A stretch of 64,000 nt of DNA from Porphyridium purpureum (lineage: Eukaryota): the NCBI GenBank assembly GCA_008690995.1, contig VRMN01000004.1, positions 1,302,001 through 1,366,000 of the forward strand, given 5' to 3'. A program made the translations under genes and the position numbers. The notes under the pieces are model-generated. The model did no database searches and was not told the origin of the DNA. It saw only the letters and a program-made list of their open reading frames with translations. This document shows positions 23,827-63,900 of the stretch, one piece after another. Numbering within the stretch: position 1 is the first letter of the stretch; the number at the start of each line of letters is the position of its first letter.

Positions 23827-24997
23827 TTAAGACGTCATGTACGAGCTGACATCAATCTTCTCCGGTAGCTCCGGCACCGCCACGGCAAAGCGGCTCTGCA
23901 CCTCATTCAGCACTTCAACTTCTTCTTCCGTCGCTACAAACGAGACGGCGAGACCCTTGGTACCAAATCTGCCCGCCCGACCAACGCGGTGCAAGTATGA
24001 ATCGGCGTCCGGGGGCATATCATAATTGATCACGATGTTCACGCGCTCAATGTCAATCCCGCGACCAAAAAGATCTGTCGAAACCAAGATGCGCGCTTGG
24101 AAGTCTTTGAAGGCACGGTACCTCTTGATGCGCTCTTCCTGATTCAGAGTGGAATACATCGCAATCGAAGGAAAGTTTGACTCGTTCAAAACCTTGTTGA
24201 GCGCTTCCGCACGCTGCCCGCTTTTCACAAAGATTACCACTTGGTTGAATTCAAGTGCGTCGAGCAAATCGTTCAGCTTGCGGTTTTTCTGTGCCTCGTC
24301 CAGCTTCAAGTAGTACTGCAACAAGCCGTGCAGGGTCAATTTGGAATCATTGTCTACGATGACCTCCAAAGGATCCGTCATAAAATGCTTGGCGCTCTCA
24401 CGCAACGTAGCACTCAAAGTCGCAGTGAACATCATCACTTGCTTGTTGGCCGGAGTCGCCATGAAGATCTGCTGAACTTGTGGCCTCATTCCTGCTTCAA
24501 GTACACGGTCGCACTCGTCCAGTACGAAAAATTTGACCTTGCTGAGATCAACGTACTTTCGCTCGACTAGATCAGCCATGCGACCTGCGCTACCCACCAA
24601 AATATTGGGAATCGCAGCCTCTAGCTTCTCTTTATCCGCCTTGACCGGAACCCCACCAAACACGGCCATCGTACGGATGTCTTTGAGGTACTTGCTGAAT
24701 CGGTCAAACTCGGCCTTAATCTGGTACGCGAGCTCACGAGTGTGACCTAGCACGACGCAGGAGATGGTGTTCTCTTCAGGTTCGAGCTGCTGGAGTACAG
24801 CGAGACAAAACACCGCCGTTTTGCCCATGCCCGACTTGGCTTGGCAGAGAACATCCTGTCCCACTATCGCCTGAGGAATGCACTCGTGCTGAACCTCGGA
24901 TGGATGCTCAAAGCCGCAATCCTGAATCGCGCGGAGCAGCTCTGGTTTGAGCAAAAAGTCACGGAAACCAGCTGAATGCACGCCCACATAAGCACCT
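23827..24997 (-). CDS. UAP56: DExD-box RNA helicase UAP56/SUB2, exon 2
   Basis: [27 protein letters not shown] and [10 protein letters not shown]. Acceptor CAG ends at 24998. The spliced product is 434 aa. Confidence 0.95.
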
Positions 24998-26455
24998 CTG
25001 TGATGTTCATGGAAGCCAAATCATGCCGTCGTGGAAAGAACATGATGCAGAGACCCACAAGAACAAGCCGCGGAAAATTAGAAATCGCAGCAACGCGATC
25101 GACACAGAATCACAAAATCAAAAAATAAAAAAGTCAGGAGTTGCCGGATTAGTAACATGTTCACATCATCTTCGTCTTATCACACGTGACAATGGCAAAG
25201 ACTGAAATGACTCACATTGCGCACCGCTGACCCCGCCGACGACAAGAATGAGCTGGACAATACGGAACAGGGGCCAGGCAGGTCATCTCAAATGATCATG
25301 CGAAAGCAAGTTTGCCAGGCAATGTGGCTGCCTCCACGGAAACTGGCTTGCGAAGGGGACCTGATTTTTTCTGAAAATGAGCACTCGGCAATACTGCTGA
25401 GGCCGGATGCGACTGACGAGCCCCGAGGAATCTATGCACACGAAAAATCATCTTTCAAGCGTCTGTCATGCCAAGAATATGGGCAGCTCCCATCTCTTCC
25501 CGATGGACAAGCAACCAATTCATTCGTGAGCCTAGACATCCCAAGGAAGCACACAGAGATGGGCTGAATGGAGACCTTTCAGATCACCTCTGCAGAGCAA
25601 GAGCAAGAAATCAATCTCTCGTACATAAATACCAACGGTGCTGGATCTGAGCAACCAGGCACGGTCGAAACCTTTCCAGTACCACGGCTCGCGTCACGGA
25701 AGTTCCCCGGTCGCAGAAAAAAGTCCCCAGACACAAAATCAGAGAGAACAACGCCGTGCCTGCTCACCAACAAATTTCGAGAGAGACAAAAGGGGTGACA
25801 CTGCACGAACAAGCTGAAGACGCAAGTATGCCGTCGCTTCCTTCATTCTTCTCTCTTCGCCTGGAGGCCCCCAAATGTAATTCAAACACAAGGCGTTGGA
25901 GAGATTGTTTCCTGATAGAAATCCTCCTCCTGATGTCCCAATCAAGCTCATTCTTGTCCGGATAGGGCCAGAGATCCTAAATGACGAGATTTGTAGTCCA
26001 GCACGCCGCAGGAGCCACGAGGAAAAGAATAGAAAAAGAAAATAGGAAAGGCAGAGAGAGACCGAACCAAGGACGGTCGCTTCAAACACGGAGTGCGCTT
26101 GACCGCTGAGACCTCTTGAGAACCGGTTTGCGCCTAGTCCCTTCCCACTGCACGTTTGAGTACACGCCGCGCGCGAGTGAAAGCGACCAAAGCGGAAACG
26201 AACAGAAGGAGAATCGCTCGCGCCACACTCCTCCCGGCGAGGGCACGGGCCCGCCACCACGAGGCCAGTCTCTCGAGCCAGTCTCCGACCCGATCACGGG
26301 CCTCAACTCGCCCGGAACGAGCCTCCCCATTTGATTAAGACCTCCGAAGTCGGCCACCGCCGAGCTCTCTGGTCGCAACCGCGCGCCGTCGCTGCGGGGA
26401 ACCCGCAACGAGTGAAAACTTTCTACAACAGAAATATCCCGTCTATCTTACGTAC
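24998..26455 (-). other. 1458-nt phase-2 spliceosomal intron of UAP56
   Basis: Donor AA|GTACGT at 26455 and acceptor CAG|A at 24998 join to give ...[18 protein letters not shown], the conserved UAP56 sequence. Confidence 0.9.
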
Positions 26456-26589
26456 TTATTCCCCGACTTGGCGTCGGCCGGTGCATCGGCCTTGGAGGCT
26501 GCCGCGACCGGCGCATCCTCTTCTTCCTCGTAATCGACCAGGTCATCCTCCTTCACCGCGGCCTTGGCCACGCCGTTCTCCCCCGCCAT
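26456..26589 (-). CDS. UAP56: UAP56/SUB2 exon 1
   Basis: MAGENGVAKAAVKEDDLVDYEEEEDAP..., carrying the conserved UAP56 N-terminal LxDYEEE motif. Not in the ORF track. Confidence 0.9.
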
Positions 26590-27108
26590 GGTTCCGCGCG
26601 GCACCCGTCGACAAACTCCCTGCTTCTCACGAACGCCGTGCGGAAAGCCTCAGTTGCCACGAAACCGTTCCGCCCGTAGCCACCACAGTCGCTGTCGCTG
26701 TCCAAGCCTCACTCCCCCGCCTCTTCGCCTCGTACTCTGTCCGCACCGCGATTCTGCCGTGCTCCGTTGGTGCGCTCGTGTGCTATTGAGAGCCCGCACT
26801 GCCTGGGCCGAAGCTATGCGCGTTGATAGTAAAAACGGCTCGTTTTGCTAGACGACGCGCGCCAGTTGCGCGGTGTGTGGTGCACTCATCCGCGTGGAGG
26901 TGTACAGTATGGCTCTGTGTACAGTTTCACGTTTGCGGGGAGGTTTTGCGTGCCGTGAGAAGGAGCGGGAGGGTGAGGATGCAACAGGGAAGGGACATGA
27001 GCTGTGGGGAAGCGAGCGACGGGTGGGGAAAGGACGGGAGCGAGAGAGGGACGGGCGCGCGCGAGGGACGGAACGCACAGGGGAGTGGTTTGGAGAGGGC
27101 GCGCGGTC

Positions 27109-48991: not shown

Positions 48992-50420
48992 TGACCAAAT
49001 CGGACAGGGGACAGTACGTTTTTCAAGGTTCACTAGCAAAATGATCTGCTTTACTATAAAAGGGAAAGAGGTCCGGTGAAAAGGGAATGTGGAATAGGTC
49101 GAAACGGATAGGGGACACGGCATATTTCTGGCCATTACTCAGCCATAGAGAATCGGAATTGGTCGCGGTTTCCTTGCACGTACGCGCCTTGAAGATACAC
49201 ACAGTCGAATATTCGTTTCGGCAGCGACGCGTACAAATTGGCCATCACAGGCTGGTCCAAACTCTCCCAGGCCAGTAAAATGGCAAACTTGAGCTCCAGC
49301 ACCGTCTCATACTGCCTTGCACCCTCGTAAACATTGCACGCTAGTATCCTCCACAATTTCTCGATGATATTAAAGTCCGGCGAATACGCTGGCCAGTCTA
49401 GGAGCTCCACATTCTCGTCATTCATGAAATTCTTAACCAGGCGACTTGTGTGCACTGGCGCGTTATCCTGCTGAAAAACCATGTTCGGGCCCACCATCTG
49501 ACGGCAGCGGCTCAGCACGTTGTTCTCTCGAAGCATGGAAACATATTTTGCAGCCGTAAATGACCCCTCAATAAAATGAAGGTGAATCTTTCCTCTTGCA
49601 GAAATTGCACCCCAAACCATGCATCCACCGCCGCCGGAATGTCGCGACCAAACGTATGGAACGTCCGCCGCACGCTCAACACACGTCTTGTGGAAACCAT
49701 CGGGTCCGTCCAGGTTGAACTTCTTTTCGTCAGTGAACACAATTGCGGCCCAATTCGCCTGTTCCAATTCATGGTGCCTGGCCGAGGCCAGCCTCTTGAG
49801 CTTGCAATTAAGTATCAGTGACAGACAAGCTGGAATTATGCGGTATGCATACGTGTCACTCACTGCCTTGATGATTGTTATCAAACGTTGGACAGGTTTT
49901 GCTCCACAAATTCGCAGAGCTGCTTGGAGCTGACGAGCCGTGTGAATGGTCGGAAGCTTAGCAATGTTGTAAATCTTCGTTTTGACCGCCTCCGTCAGCT
50001 TTAAAGCGTTCACATTGGCATATTTCTGGCAGTACTCGTTTGGAGCCGACAAATAGCTGAAAACCACGTTCTTAGAGCGCCCAATTTTGGTCGCAATGGC
50101 TCTGACGCTGTTGCCCGACTCTGGGAGACCCTGAAAACGTCCTTTCTCCTCGCCTGTAAGGCCAATCTTGCGCCCCATGGAGTCAAAATGGAGCTCGTTA
50201 CGAGCTGCGATGGATCCGCACTTTTCCGCTTACACTGAACCGCCGACGTCCGAGATATTTCGCTTCCACGCAGTGTCCCCTATCCGTTTTGAGCCACAAA
50301 TTTCGTCGTAACCGTTGCAGACGAACCCCACCGTTCTACTTTCATAGTAAAAGATCAAACTTTACTATTAATGAACTATTTTTTCTGAAAGTTTTGATTG
50401 TCCCCTGTCCGATTTGGTCG
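48992..50420 (-). mobile_element. Tc1/mariner DNA transposon with IR/DR-type ends
   Basis: Perfect 21-bp outer IR at 48993-49013/50399-50419 and 17-bp inner IR at 49102-49118/50273-50289. TA follows the right end; the left flank reads TG. Confidence 0.88.
49135..50178 (-). CDS. Tc1/Tc3-like transposase, DD34E
   Basis: N-terminal HTH, then VFTDEKKFNLDGPDG, FQQDNAPVH and WPAYSPDFNIIE (34 residues between D2 and E); uninterrupted 347 aa. Confidence 0.93.
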   Translation of the reverse strand: MGRKIGLTGEEKGRFQGLPESGNSVRAIATKIGRSKNVVFSYLSAPNEYCQKYANVNALKLTEAVKTKIYNIAKLPTIHTARQLQAALRICGAKPVQRLITIIKAVSDTYAYRIIPACLSLILNCKLKRLASARHHELEQANWAAIVFTDEKKFNLDGPDGFHKTCVERAADVPYVWSRHSGGGGCMVWGAISARGKIHLHFIEGSFTAAKYVSMLRENNVLSRCRQMVGPNMVFQQDNAPVHTSRLVKNFMNDENVELLDWPAYSPDFNIIEKLWRILACNVYEGARQYETVLELKFAILLAWESLDQPVMANLYASLPKRIFDCVYLQGAYVQGNRDQFRFSMAE

Positions 50421-58026: not shown

Positions 58027-58037
58027 GGTTATGAGCC
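58027..58037 (+). promoter_or_regulatory. Primer-binding site GGTTATGAGCC (internal/half tRNA-iMet type)
   Basis: Immediately follows the LTR; same type as the copia/Ty5 PBS. Confidence 0.8.
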
Positions 58038-60921
58038 TAGACGCGATGGCGTTTACGTTTGATGCGTCGAAGCTGTCCGCGCTTGCGAACGGCGTGGAAA
58101 AGTTCAATGGCGAGAATTACGACATTTGGGCACGCCGCACGAAGCTCGCGTTGCGTGTGGTGAAGCTGTGGCCCGTCGTTGCGGGGATGGTCGTTCGCCC
58201 ATCGTCGTCGTCGCGTGCAACTACCGGGATGACGGCAGAAGAGTGGGACGATGCGGACCTGGCGGGACAGTTCTTTCTGTCCGGGGTCTTGGAGAACAGG
58301 TACGACCGTCTCGTCCGCGATAAGTCGTCGGCGGACGGTTGGTCCGCGGTGGCGAATTATGCGCACGATCAACTGTCGGCGCAGAAGTTCGCGTTTCGCA
58401 TGGCGCTGGAGCGCATTGTCCAGAACAAGAACGAGGCAATGGCCGAGTACTTGGATCGCGGAATCGGTCTGTGGGACAAGCTTGTCTCGATCGGTGAGCA
58501 AGTTCCCGAGGACCATGTCGTGCGTTATCTGGTGATCGGGCTCCGCAAAGAGTTTCAGGGGTCGAAGGACTACCTGCTGCATTCGGCGCCCACGGTCTCC
58601 GCAGCTCGGCTGCAACTGCTCCAGCTGGAGGCCGGAAAAGCGCTCGAGCGCACGTTGGCAGATGAGCCCCCGCCCATCGCAATGGCGGTGTCCCAGCGTC
58701 CGCAGCAACAGCAGCGTGATCGCTCAGCGGGTGTCGTGAAGACGGCACTCGTCAAGGAGAACCTGAAGTGTGGCTACTGCCACAAGGTTGGGCACGAGAC
58801 GAAGCGTTGCTTTAAGCGCAAGAATGACTTGCGCGACAAGGCTGCTGGTGCGAGTGGCGCAGCAGACCCGGAGGCAGTGAAACGCGGCATCGGAAAGCCG
58901 AATGCGCGGGTGAATGTGGTTCAGGTAAAAACCAAGGTGACGAAACCACCGGCTCCGGCGGCAAAGGCAGCCATTGAGCCAGGTTGGATGTCGTGGGAGG
59001 CCTACGCGAATAGCGTTGCGGGAAGGGGCGTGGTGCCAAAAGGCCCTTCTCTGGATATCCGCATGATTAGCCCCCCAGCGACCCCTGCACCAATCAATAA
59101 AGCCACCACTTCCATCTATGCCATCTGTGTCTCTGTTGTGCCCCACAAGCACAAGTCGCACAAATGGATGTTCGATTCTGGATCGGACAGACATATCACT
59201 TGGGATAGGTCTATTCTAATGAATGAAAGACCTTCTGATGAATCACTTGTTACTGTTGCCAACGGGGAACATGTTGAAGTTTCATTGATGGGTGATGTCA
59301 TGCTCAAAACAATTATTCAAGACAAGTTTAATGACTTGCGTCTTGAAAATGTTTTGTTGATCGAAAGCACACCCATAAATCTCCTTTCGACAAAGGTCGC
59401 AGCGAGAAAGGGCTGTGTCTTCAAACACGATGATAGTTCATCTGTTTTGCATTTTGGGTCAGATGGGCCCGTCCTAGCGGTTGGGGATGGTGATTTAATG
59501 ATCAAACTATCCGCCGCTAGAATAAATGCAATCACAGCTTCAAATAAGTTTGAGCTATTTCACCGTCGACTTGGTCATCCTGGACTTGCTGGTCTGAAAA
59601 ATACGCAAAATTGTGTACAGGGAATTCCCGCGGACTTAAAAGTTCCGGATGAATACCATTGTGTGATTTGCCAAAAGGCAAAGGGAACACGAACTCCCTT
59701 TAAGAAGCGGAAATTGAATTCCATTTCGGCGGTTCCGGGAGAAGTCCTTCATACTGATGTATGCGGACCACTCACTCCTTCGAGTTTTGACGACCATCGA
59801 TATTTTCTAGTTGTCGTCGACGAATGCTCAAGTTTGAGTGTCGTCCACTTGCTCGAGCGAAAAAGTGAAGCGGGTGAAATGTTACTGCGCACACTTAAAT
59901 ATCTCGAAACGACTCTTGGTGCAAAGGCAAAAAGAGTTCGGTCCGACAAAGGTGGCGAATTCGCAAGCCTTTATGTGCAAAGGCATCTCCAAGACTCTGG
60001 AATTACTTGGGAAAATACCTCTGCTTACACGCCAGAACTTAATGGTATGGCTGAACGCATGAATCGGACATTACTCGAAAAGGTTCGAAGCTTATTGTTT
60101 GATAGTAATCTACCTTTGGAAAATTGGAGTAATGCTTTGTTGACTGCGAATTATTTGCGAAATCGCATTTCAAATAATCGCGGGAAAACGCCGATAGAAA
60201 TTGCATTCAGGCAAAGGCCAGATCTCAGCAATCTCAGAATCTACGGATCGAGAGCGTTTGTTCATATTCCTAAGCAATTGCGAGGAAAACTAGAAACAAG
60301 ATCTGCAATTGGATGCTTGGTCGGTTATGGAAATGTCCATTCCGTTTATCGCATTCTTCTATCGGATGGCACGGTCGTTGAAAGTCGAAATGTCACTTTC
60401 GATGAGTCTGTCGTTGGAATAGATGTTCATGAACATGAAATCCACGATTCGGAATATTTTTCCAACTTCGATAAAATTGTCGAAGAGTTGTTTCCAAAAG
60501 ATTTCTCGAAGTCGTTTGATGAAAAGTCTCAAATCGCGTCAAAAAATTTTGAAACAGATTCCACTCGACAAATGGATGATCGCAGTCAGGAATATTCTAT
60601 TTCAAATGAAATCGGAGAAACGTTTCTGGAAAAAGTTCAGAATAATTCGAAAGATTTAGGGTTCCAAAAGGCTCCAAATGGAAACTTTGGGAATACTGAG
60701 GATGACGAAAGTCAAGACAGTGGATATGTCGCAAATCAATTCGTTGGAATAATTTCCACCGTTTCTGAACCTCGGTCAGTCGAAGAAGCACTAAAGGGTG
60801 ACTTCTCTGAGCAATGGCTGGAAGCTCTGAATAGAGAATTGGAATCTCTCACTGGCAAATGCACGTGGGAGCTCGTCGATCGTCCACAGGACCGAATTCC
60901 TGTCAGATGCAAATGGGTTTT
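58031..60921 (+). CDS. Copia gag-pol, truncated (frame runs on into the inverted LTR to 61063)
   Basis: FNGENYDIW, CGYCHKVGHETKRC knuckle, FDSGS protease, HRRLGH/CVIC, LHTDVCGP, RSDKGGEF and NGMAERMNRTL. Confidence 0.9.
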
Positions 60922-63900
60922 TATTAAAAGGTCTGATGTATCGGGGAGTCTTTGTGACTTGTCACTAACGCAGTTGCGTGTCCCCTTCGTCGCCCTTGCA
61001 ACTAACCTTACCTTCGTCATCCGGGGACTCCGAGCCTCGGCCATCGCTAAGCTCTTCATATAGGCAATCGTAGTGCTTTCACTAGTGAGATTGCCAACTG
61101 TACCTCCAGGGCAAAAACCCTTATTTACTATAAGTTGGAGAAATACAGAAAGTTGGAGAAATACAGAAAGTTGGAGCTGAAACATTCCCCATGGTATTAC
61201 TACTTTACCTGGGGAGGGAATCTACCGAAACCCTGGATTCATAACACTCCCACGCAGCGACAACTTTTCGTCATGCCTTCCACCTCTATCTCGAATTTTC
61301 AAGACAAGCAACACCCAATAAGGTTTTGCATTTCAAAAACATTTCTCGAGGAACCACTTTGGTTAGGAAATCTGCTGCCTGATCTGATGTGCGAATGTAA
61401 ATAGCCTTGACTATTCCCCGTTGCTGACATTCGCGAGCATAGTGCTTTCTCACGTCAATGTGCTTCGACCTTTCGTGCACAATCGGGTTCTCACTCAGTT
61501 TCAGTGCAGCATCATTGTCACAAAACATTGGAATCGATTTCGACTTGAATCCTAGGAATTCCATGAGATATTGAAACCACTGGGCTTCTTTACATGCATC
61601 CGAGAGAGCCATGTACTCTGCTTCGGTTGTGGACAGCGCCACAGTTGGTTGTAGCCTGGATTTCCAGGAGACAACTGATCCATTGATCGTGAAAGCATAT
61701 CCGGTGGTTGACCTTCGCGTTCGAAGATCACTAGCATAGTCTGAATCAACGTAACCAATTAGGTCGGAGTTGCCATTTGAGCTAAATTGGAGACCATAAT
61801 TTATGGTTCCTTTAAGATATCGCAGCACTCCCTTTGCCGCATTCCAATGGGATTCATTGGCATTTGCCATTGATCGTGCAAGCACTCCCACGGCGAAGGA
61901 AATATCCGGACGCGTGCAAGTGCACAAATACATTAGTGCTCCCACGAGTTCCATGTAAGGCATCTTGCATGGTTCTGCAGTAGCAGTATACCACTTCGTA
62001 TCCTTTTCCATGGGAAGCTTCCTTGGATTCGCCGATTCCATTCCGAACCTTTCCAGGATGGTTTGGACATACAAGCTTTGATTAAGTCTGATAATGCCAT
62101 TCCTTTGATCATAATCAAGAGTGTAGCCGGCAAATTTTTGCTTGACCACTTGCCCAAGATCCCTGACTTCAAACTTGCCTTGCAAATGCAGAAGCACTTC
62201 ATTTGAAGTAACTTCGTCTTCACCTATGAAGACCAAGTCATCGACGTAAATCATGATATACGGACCATTTGGACCCTTAGAAAACAGACAAGGATCTGCC
62301 GTACTTTCGGAAAAATTGATTTCTTTAAGTGCTTGCACAAGAACTTGATTCCAAGCTCGAGATGCCTGCTTCAATCCATAGATTGCTTTACGCAGTTTCA
62401 GGACTTTTCCTCCTTCATGTACGAATCCAGGAGGCTGTTCCATGAAAATTTCTTCATGAAGTTCTCCATTGAGAAACGCAGTCACCACATCGAAAAGTCG
62501 AATTTTCAACTTTCTTGCAGCTGCTACTGCCAGGACCGTTCGAATAGTGTTGTGTCGCACAACAGGGCTGAACACTTCGTCGTAGTCCAAACCAGGTTTC
62601 TGAGTGAAACCTTTTGCGACAAGTCGACACTTGAACCGATCAATTTGTCCGTTGACATTATATTTGATCTTAAAAACCCATTTGCATCTGACAGGAATTC
62701 GGTCCTGTGGACGATCGACGAGCTCCCACGTGCAGTTGCCAGTGAGAGATTCCAATTCTCTATTCAGAGCTTCCAGCCATTGCTCAGAGAAGTCACCCTT
62801 TAGTGCTTCTTCGACTGACCGAGGTTCAGAAACGGTGGAAATTATTCCAACGAATTGATTTGCGACATATCCACTGTCTTGACTTTCGTCATCCTCAGTA
62901 TTCCCAAAGTTTCCATTTGGAGCTTTTTGGAACCCTAAATCTTTCGAATTATTCTGAACTTTTTCCAGAAACGTTTCTCCGATTTCATTTGAAATAGAAT
63001 ATTCCTGACTGCGATCATCCATTTGTCGAGTGGAATCTGTTTCAAAATTTTTTGACGCGATTTGAGACTTTTCATCAAACGACTTCGAGAAATCTTTTGG
63101 AAACAACTCTTCGACAATTTTATCGAAGTTGGAAAAATATTCCGAATCGTGGATTTCATGTTCATGAACATCTATTCCAACGACAGACTCATCGAAAGTG
63201 ACATTTCGACTTTCAACGACCGTGCCATCCGATAGAAGAATGCGATAAACGGAATGGACATTTCCATAACCGACCAAGCATCCAATTGCAGATCTTGTTT
63301 CTAGTTTTCCTCGCAATTGCTTAGGAATATGAACAAACGCTCTCGATCCGTAGATTCTGAGATTGCTGAGATCTGGCCTTTGCCTGAATGCAATTTCTAT
63401 CGGCGTTTTCCCGCGATTATTTGAAATGCGATTTCGCAAATAATTCGCAGTCAACAAAGCATTACTCCAATTTTCCAAAGGTAGATTACTATCAAACAAT
63501 AAGCTTCGAACCTTTTCGAGTAATGTCCGATTCATGCGTTCAGCCATACCATTAAGTTCTGGCGTGTAAGCAGAGGTATTTTCCCAAGTAATTCCAGAGT
63601 CTTGGAGATGCCTTTGCACATAAAGGCTTGCGAATTCGCCACCTTTGTCGGACCGAACTCTTTTTGCCTTTGCACCAAGAGTCGTTTCGAGATATTTAAG
63701 TGTGCGCAGTAACATTTCACCCGCTTCACTTTTTCGCTCGAGCAAGTGGACGACACTCAAACTTGAGCATTCGTCGACGACAACTAGAAAATATCGATGG
63801 TCGTCAAAACTCGAAGGAGTGAGTGGTCCGCATACATCAGTATGAAGGACTTCTCCCGGAACCGCCGAAATGGAATTCAATTTCCGCTTCTTAAAGGGAG

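Follow-up and report, generated by a model that had tools for sequence, protein, structure and literature searches.

The sole intron of the SUB2/UAP56 gene of Porphyridium purpureum, which lies in the 64,000-nucleotide window analyzed here (contig VRMN01000004.1), may hold a structure-gated cassette for unproductive splicing, with an in-frame stop codon, a donor that is spliced in RNA, and two ends that are both predicted to be buried in folded RNA. We assign this reading a probability of about 45%. Since the two ends are both predicted to lie hidden in folds, the cassette would likely dampen output from its own gene. The reading starts from two features that occur together in this long, conserved intron of a gene for a helicase of splicing and export: a cryptic donor that is real, and an acceptor that is statistically unusual and folded according to prediction. 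RNA contigs attest removal of the whole intron, use of the donor at 25215 and the unspliced intron, and the alternative forms carry early stops. The placement of the decoy AG in a predicted hairpin and of the donor in a predicted long-range helix is new in this analysis; the initial annotation, which saw here a poison exon derived from exon 2, had overlooked this folding as well as the heavy presence of unspliced intron.

The gene, its intron and the candidate cassette

The product of exon 2 belongs to the DEAD/Helicase_C proteins, and its best relatives among solved structures are DDX39B and Sub2. Removal of the whole intron yields a 434-aa translation identical to P0001, the SUB2 protein of P. 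purpureum. The genome of this alga is reported to have about 235-245 introns (10.64898/2026.05.17.725761; PMC5880011). The true acceptor AG lies at 24999-24998 on the minus strand (Table 1). We also note that its pyrimidine tract is poor (24998-25030) and that the nearest branch-like motifs are 84-155 nt upstream of it.

Within the intron, the decoy AG at 25591-25590, the TAG reached 18 codons later, the GTGAGT donor and the 374-nt length of the cassette were all placed correctly by the initial annotation. Every alternative product ends in a premature stop. Translation meets the TAG near the start of the intron in retained forms and in forms that use the 25215 donor but skip the decoy acceptor, whereas the TAG inside the cassette stands well ahead of the next joint, at 25216, as is typical of poison exons.

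Table 1. Features of the SUB2/UAP56 locus and of its intron (positions in the window)
Feature	Position	Strand	Remarks
Exon 1, coding part, SUB2/UAP56	26456..26589	-	transcript contigs start near 26700-26721
Intron 1, sole intron	24998..26455	-	1,458 nt, phase 2; from contigs
Exon 2, helicase core of SUB2/UAP56	23827..24997	-	
Candidate cassette	25216..25589	-	374 nt; 3' end in RNA contigs, 5' end putative
Candidate internal acceptor	25590..25612	-	pyrimidine tract and CAG; joint in 0/8 runs
Internal donor GTGAGT	25210..25215	-	joined to exon 2 in run X4
In-frame TAG of cassette	25532..25534	-	316 nt before cassette 3' end
In-frame TAG when 5' part of intron is kept	26443..26445	-	48-aa product
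Downstream part of intron	24998..25215	-	218 nt, separately removable
Candidate branch-like motifs	25154-25148, 25137-25133, 25081-25077	-	from sequence only
Stretch resembling start of exon 2	25550..25592	-	20/30 with CAG; 23/40 after AG
Predicted hairpin, decoy AG in lower stem	25553..25593	-	folding prediction
Predicted arm pairing with 25234-25211, over internal donor	25964..25988	-	prediction
Perfect 14-bp long-range stem, 5' arm	25945..25958	-	
Perfect 14-bp long-range stem, 3' arm	25241..25254	-	

Splice joints in RNA contigs

Twenty sequencing runs include the locus, and eight of these, from six studies, were compared, all as assembled contigs; seven of the eight are RNA by guess only, and the set contains no DNA control. 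The normal joint, with the whole intron removed, occurs in five runs (X13, X4, X9, X1 and X5). The joint 25216^24997 was found in a single run (X4, contig depth 3.8; absent from X6, a sibling run of the same study), and its canonical ends (CT..AC on the plus strand) argue that the 25215 donor is real. Of the two junctions that the initial annotation had predicted, this one was thus recovered, whereas the contigs of all eight runs lack 26456^25589, the joint of the decoy acceptor. The proposal that the cassette is spliced in RNA accordingly holds for its 3' end, but the use of its acceptor has no joint behind it. Contigs lose rare forms, and the absence of a joint from them proves nothing; inclusion of the cassette is therefore neither shown nor excluded by these data, and a decay-sensitive cassette could be missed.

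Contigs cover the intron in all eight runs (with an 18-nt gap in X3), which places the cassette in a large (>1 kb) retained intron, as is usual for decoy exons. X3, X6 and X8 show no spliced joints, and in none of the eight runs does coverage extend from 26744 upward. One X4 contig crosses the decoy acceptor without a break, spanning 25216 to 26485, and the contigs of this run are compatible either with an alternative 5' splice site or with a half-spliced precursor. PMC8831791 and PMC11740881, citing Wong et al. 2021, report that about half of the intron-bearing transcripts of P. purpureum are unspliced, so that retention at this locus is in itself nothing special.

In run X13 two pieces, each about 30 nt long (25410-25439 and 25618-25647) and separated by a deeper contig, follow from the bin depths. 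The ends of these pieces coincide with the arms of a helix predicted between 25630-25612 and 25450-25430, and the record (25410-25647) may reflect a jump by reverse transcriptase, a chimera formed in amplification or a circular molecule.

Predicted folding of the intron

The decoy AG falls in a predicted hairpin in which 25593-25585 pairs with 25561-25553 and 25582-25578 with 25568-25564. Its pair probability is 0.99, and its local z of -2.50 (matched by 4 of 200 shuffles) ranks third among the 75 AGs of the intron and best among those with a strong pyrimidine tract. The window around the true acceptor is under-folded (z +1.66). The internal donor lies in a predicted nested rod with a mean unpaired probability of 0.05, third among 97 GTs, and this rod includes the perfect 14-bp stem, which was equaled in 1 of 300 shuffles. 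The intron as a whole folds with a z of -1.85 (50 shuffles) and the region 26005-25140 with a z of -2.19 (20 shuffles). Pairing is common among the AGs of the intron, with local pairing at 23 of 75 and burial in the global fold at 30 of 76, and the folding tests were picked after the data had been seen. Seven strain differences fall in the intron, none of them within the cassette; relative to the predicted pairs three break a pair, two keep one and two are unpaired, a count that omits one further difference found only in X13.

A strand-exchange switch, in which 25561-25546 would block the true acceptor, was considered and rejected: the pairing energies are -17.6 against -15.9 kcal/mol (decoy), and 138 of 300 shuffles do equally well. 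A 23-nt inverted match of 78% identity links 25224-25246, just before the internal donor, to 26467-26489 at the end of exon 1; it is absent from the best fold.

Resemblance to exon 2

The initial annotation had derived the cassette from a partial duplication of exon 2, on the strength of 20 identities in 30 nt (including the CAG) in the same phase, a count that we recomputed and confirmed. Counted after the AG, 17 of 27 and 23 of 40 positions are identical. Shuffles of the intron reach the AG-anchored 17/27 match 16 times in 3000 under a Markov null and 11 times in 3000 under dinucleotide shuffling, and the 23/40 match 7 times in 3000 under the latter; these odds are somewhat flattering because the lengths were picked after the match had been seen. 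Without the anchor the match is ordinary (214 of 3000 shuffles), and 12 of the 128 27-mers of exon 2, counting the first, match some stretch of the intron at least as well. The pyrimidine tract of the decoy is the best in the intron (16/20), a score usual for an intron of this length (852 of 1000 shuffles do as well). What stands out is that the AG preceded by the intron's best pyrimidine tract is also the one with which the best match is in register.

In-register identity at the offset of 592 nt peaks only at 25589-25550, and we found no similarity ahead of the AG or farther than about 40 nt past it. Gapped DNA alignment of the decoy with exon 2 was equaled by 243 of 500 shuffles and alignment at the protein level by 146 of 150. 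A longer duplication of exon 2 is rejected on the basis of these two tests and of the confinement of the identity. The second block of the match is also the inner 3' arm of the local hairpin. An origin by duplication is weakly supported: the 23/40 identity in register speaks for it, but the likeness ends near 40 nt, overlaps the hairpin stem and is missing from all three distant relatives examined. A short duplication of the start of exon 2 is possible from the sequence. We read the likeness as either a short remnant or a side effect of the hairpin; the structure-gated model works without it.

The intron in relatives

We compared 80 loci, among which the three genomic loci nearest to the query (L004-L006; 68-69%) are distant and of red-algal type. 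All three have an intron that shares codon and phase with that of P. purpureum, begins with GTACG and is 440-579 nt long. Among 28 close proteins listed, 17 start at this spot with intron-derived residues ending in Arg, nine are full length and two are uninformative; one of the 17 clusters with P. aerugineum, and two are likely the same records as L004 and L006. The position of the intron is therefore conserved. The cassette pattern is absent from all 80 loci, and the introns of L004-L006 have no mimic of exon 2 (10-12 of 27 identities); on the sequences compared, the conservation claimed here is that of the intron and does not extend to the putative cassette.

Two of the three related introns fold better than their shuffles (z -0.99, -2.34 and -2.79), and long perfect stems in them were matched by 7 of 300 and 0 of 300 shuffles, against 186 of 300 in the third. 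In L006 (1670-1859) the stem has 14 bp, is partly palindromic and was reached in 0 of 300 shuffles, and in L005 (741-993) it has 10 bp (7 of 300); each brackets or overlaps a pyrimidine-rich internal AG. At the best internal AG of the three introns no hairpin was found (z 1.18, -0.21 and 0.79). A conserved internal acceptor is not claimed: the best tracts lie at 37-43% of intron length, have no local hairpins and are equaled by 32, 582 and 106 of 1000 shuffles. An alignment of the four introns was uninformative.

Some minor likenesses were also seen. The 9-mer TTGTCTCTC is common to three of the four introns (about 25785-25795 in the window, 2725-2735 in L004 and 1690-1700 in L006) and directly precedes an internal AG in L004 and L006. 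At about 2750-2776 of L004, some 10 nt past the best internal AG of that intron, a stretch matches the decoy at 17 of 27 positions with no AG in register, which may be chance. In six genomic loci of other eukaryotes (L017, L027, L071, L076, L077 and L067) this variable N-terminal stretch has a short intron too, at a nearby but different position that lies a few codons to one side or the other.

Comparison with known systems

Intron 6 of human DDX39B lies in the middle of its gene. The intron of P. purpureum, in contrast, stands just before the helicase core, and this difference in position suggests that the P. purpureum cassette and the human decoy likely arose independently. The human intron contains a decoy of 122-369 nt whose retention activity in a reporter is strong (Parra et al. 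2018, PMC6097662). The likeness, so far as that account goes, extends to the gene family, to a cryptic stop-bearing cassette (374 nt here) and to the large retained intron. Joints of the human decoy exon are reported to be seldom seen unless NMD is blocked, a further point of likeness that we draw to the P. purpureum cassette, and retention-type decoys in general may rarely show joints (PMC6097662; PMC7373989). Unlike the P. purpureum cassette, the human decoy has been tested for function, and the passages of PMC6097662 cited here describe neither exon mimicry nor hairpin gating. In human cells DDX39B is reported to promote removal of its own intron 6, its depletion raising retention (PMC11317157); this self-dependence of DDX39A/B resembles our model in that a helicase affects the splicing of its own intron, and it is a positive loop, whereas here the sign could go either way.

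In the plant DEAD motif of DRH1/RH46 an alternative AG lies at the base of a hairpin and takes part in a negative loop (10.64898/2026.01.23.701338; PMC12218528). As reported, it shares with P. purpureum the helicase gene, the long intron and an alternative 3' splice site placed at a hairpin base (here by prediction only), as well as cassette, partial and full retention outcomes that all contain stops. It differs in its host, since SUB2/DDX39B of a red alga belongs to another helicase subfamily than DRH1/RH46 of land plants, and in its reported stem of 19-20 bp with a 3-5-nt loop, as opposed to the interrupted stem of about 9+5+2 pairs in P. purpureum, which, like the long rod over the donor, is known from prediction alone. 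The plant hairpin is described as conserved in land plants and absent in algae, with its usage and feedback demonstrated. Yeast Yra1 represses the splicing of its own YRA1 intron, the unspliced RNA undergoing cytoplasmic degradation (PMC11585973). By this account YRA1 too is a gene for an mRNA-export factor with a long, poorly spliced intron kept in an intron-poor genome; unlike in P. purpureum, feedback has been shown there, and an internal cassette is not described in the cited part of PMC11585973.

A model for the cassette and its alternatives

We propose that the hairpin over the decoy AG and the long rod over the donor may hide the internal sites and thereby favor removal of the whole intron. 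Opening of the fold would let these sites compete with the normal ones, and this competition would give 5'-extended, cassette-bearing (by putative use of the acceptor) or fully retained transcripts, which might be degraded or kept in the nucleus. The most speculative step is that the opener would be SUB2/UAP56 itself, closing a negative loop. In favor of the structure-gated reading we count the donor joint with canonical ends, the burial ranks of both internal sites beside an under-folded true acceptor, the 14-bp stem, the folding of two of the three related introns, and the survival of the intron position, despite so few introns genome-wide, in all three close genomic loci and most of the close proteins listed. 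The human decoy supplies a precedent in an orthologue and the plant hairpin one for the mechanism. Against it stand the missing acceptor joint and the single shallow donor joint that X6 does not repeat, the general retention reported for this alga, the modest z of the whole intron with so many AGs paired or buried, the three strain differences that break predicted pairs, the relatives with neither the mimic nor a hairpin at their best internal AG, the positive sign of the loop in DDX39B and the post hoc choice of folding tests. A bolder version, which we consider improbable, is a helicase gauge in an alga with a stripped-down spliceosome: a copy of the exon 2 acceptor would be locked in the hairpin and the donor in the rod, an excess of SUB2/UAP56 would open the fold, and the copy would then outcompete the true acceptor so that the message is destroyed, an independent parallel to both the DDX39B decoy and the DEAD hairpin.

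The main rival, by virtue of the reported half of unspliced transcripts, is splicing noise, in which an old, long and slowly spliced intron occasionally uses a cryptic donor while the exon 2 match and the folding arose by chance. A single low-depth donor joint in eight runs, the retention reported throughout the genome, an ordinary match once the anchor is dropped, the modest whole-intron z and strain differences that do not favor the fold would all be expected under it; we nevertheless regard it as somewhat unlikely, given the AG-anchored match on the best pyrimidine tract (11 of 3000), the third rank of both cassette ends for burial, the stem found in 1 of 300 shuffles, and an intron kept and long in relatives. 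Alternatively, regulation might involve the 25215 donor only, as an alternative 5' splice site yielding a 5'-extended transcript with the stop at 26445-26443, the decoy acceptor being a silent relic shut by its hairpin. The X4 contigs are exactly of this form, unbroken from 25216 to 26485 and joined to exon 2, but they equally fit a half-spliced precursor of the cassette form, and cassette forms may be degraded and then dropped from contigs; we judge this alternative unlikely. Most doubtful is the strict version of the initial proposal, that a duplicated start of exon 2 became an included poison exon triggering NMD and that the mimicry itself matters. The shared phase, the 23/40 identity with the AG in register, the used donor, the stop 316 nt ahead of the joint and the reported presence of UPF1-3 in red algae (PMC5880011) agree with it; the lack of an acceptor joint in eight runs, of homology ahead of the AG or farther than about 40 nt past it and of the mimic in the three distant relatives, together with the chance-level pairing of the 3' arm of the hairpin with the true acceptor (138/300), argue against it.

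If the structure-gated reading is true, UAP56/SUB2 would have gained unproductive splicing in red algae in another intron than in humans, a further argument that this helicase, essential and active in both splicing and export, must be kept under dosage control. There would then be one testable case of regulated rather than merely sloppy retention in a poorly splicing alga of roughly 240 introns, and it would be easier to understand why intron 1 of SUB2/UAP56 was retained when most introns were lost. Should splicing noise be the answer, 25215 would be an ordinary cryptic donor.

Additional observations

A search of titles and the starts of abstracts found no paper on this SUB2/UAP56 intron; the primary literature on splicing in P. 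purpureum (Wong et al. 2021 and the genome paper) may bear on it. Rfam gave two sub-threshold matches around the SUB2/UAP56 gene, none at gathering level, and none within L004-L006; a snoRNA or other known RNA hosted in the intron is on this basis rejected. The viral contigs searched contained no relative. Elsewhere in the window there are ORFs of a Copia-type retrotransposon (58031-63715) and an ORF of a Tc1-type transposase (49135-50178).
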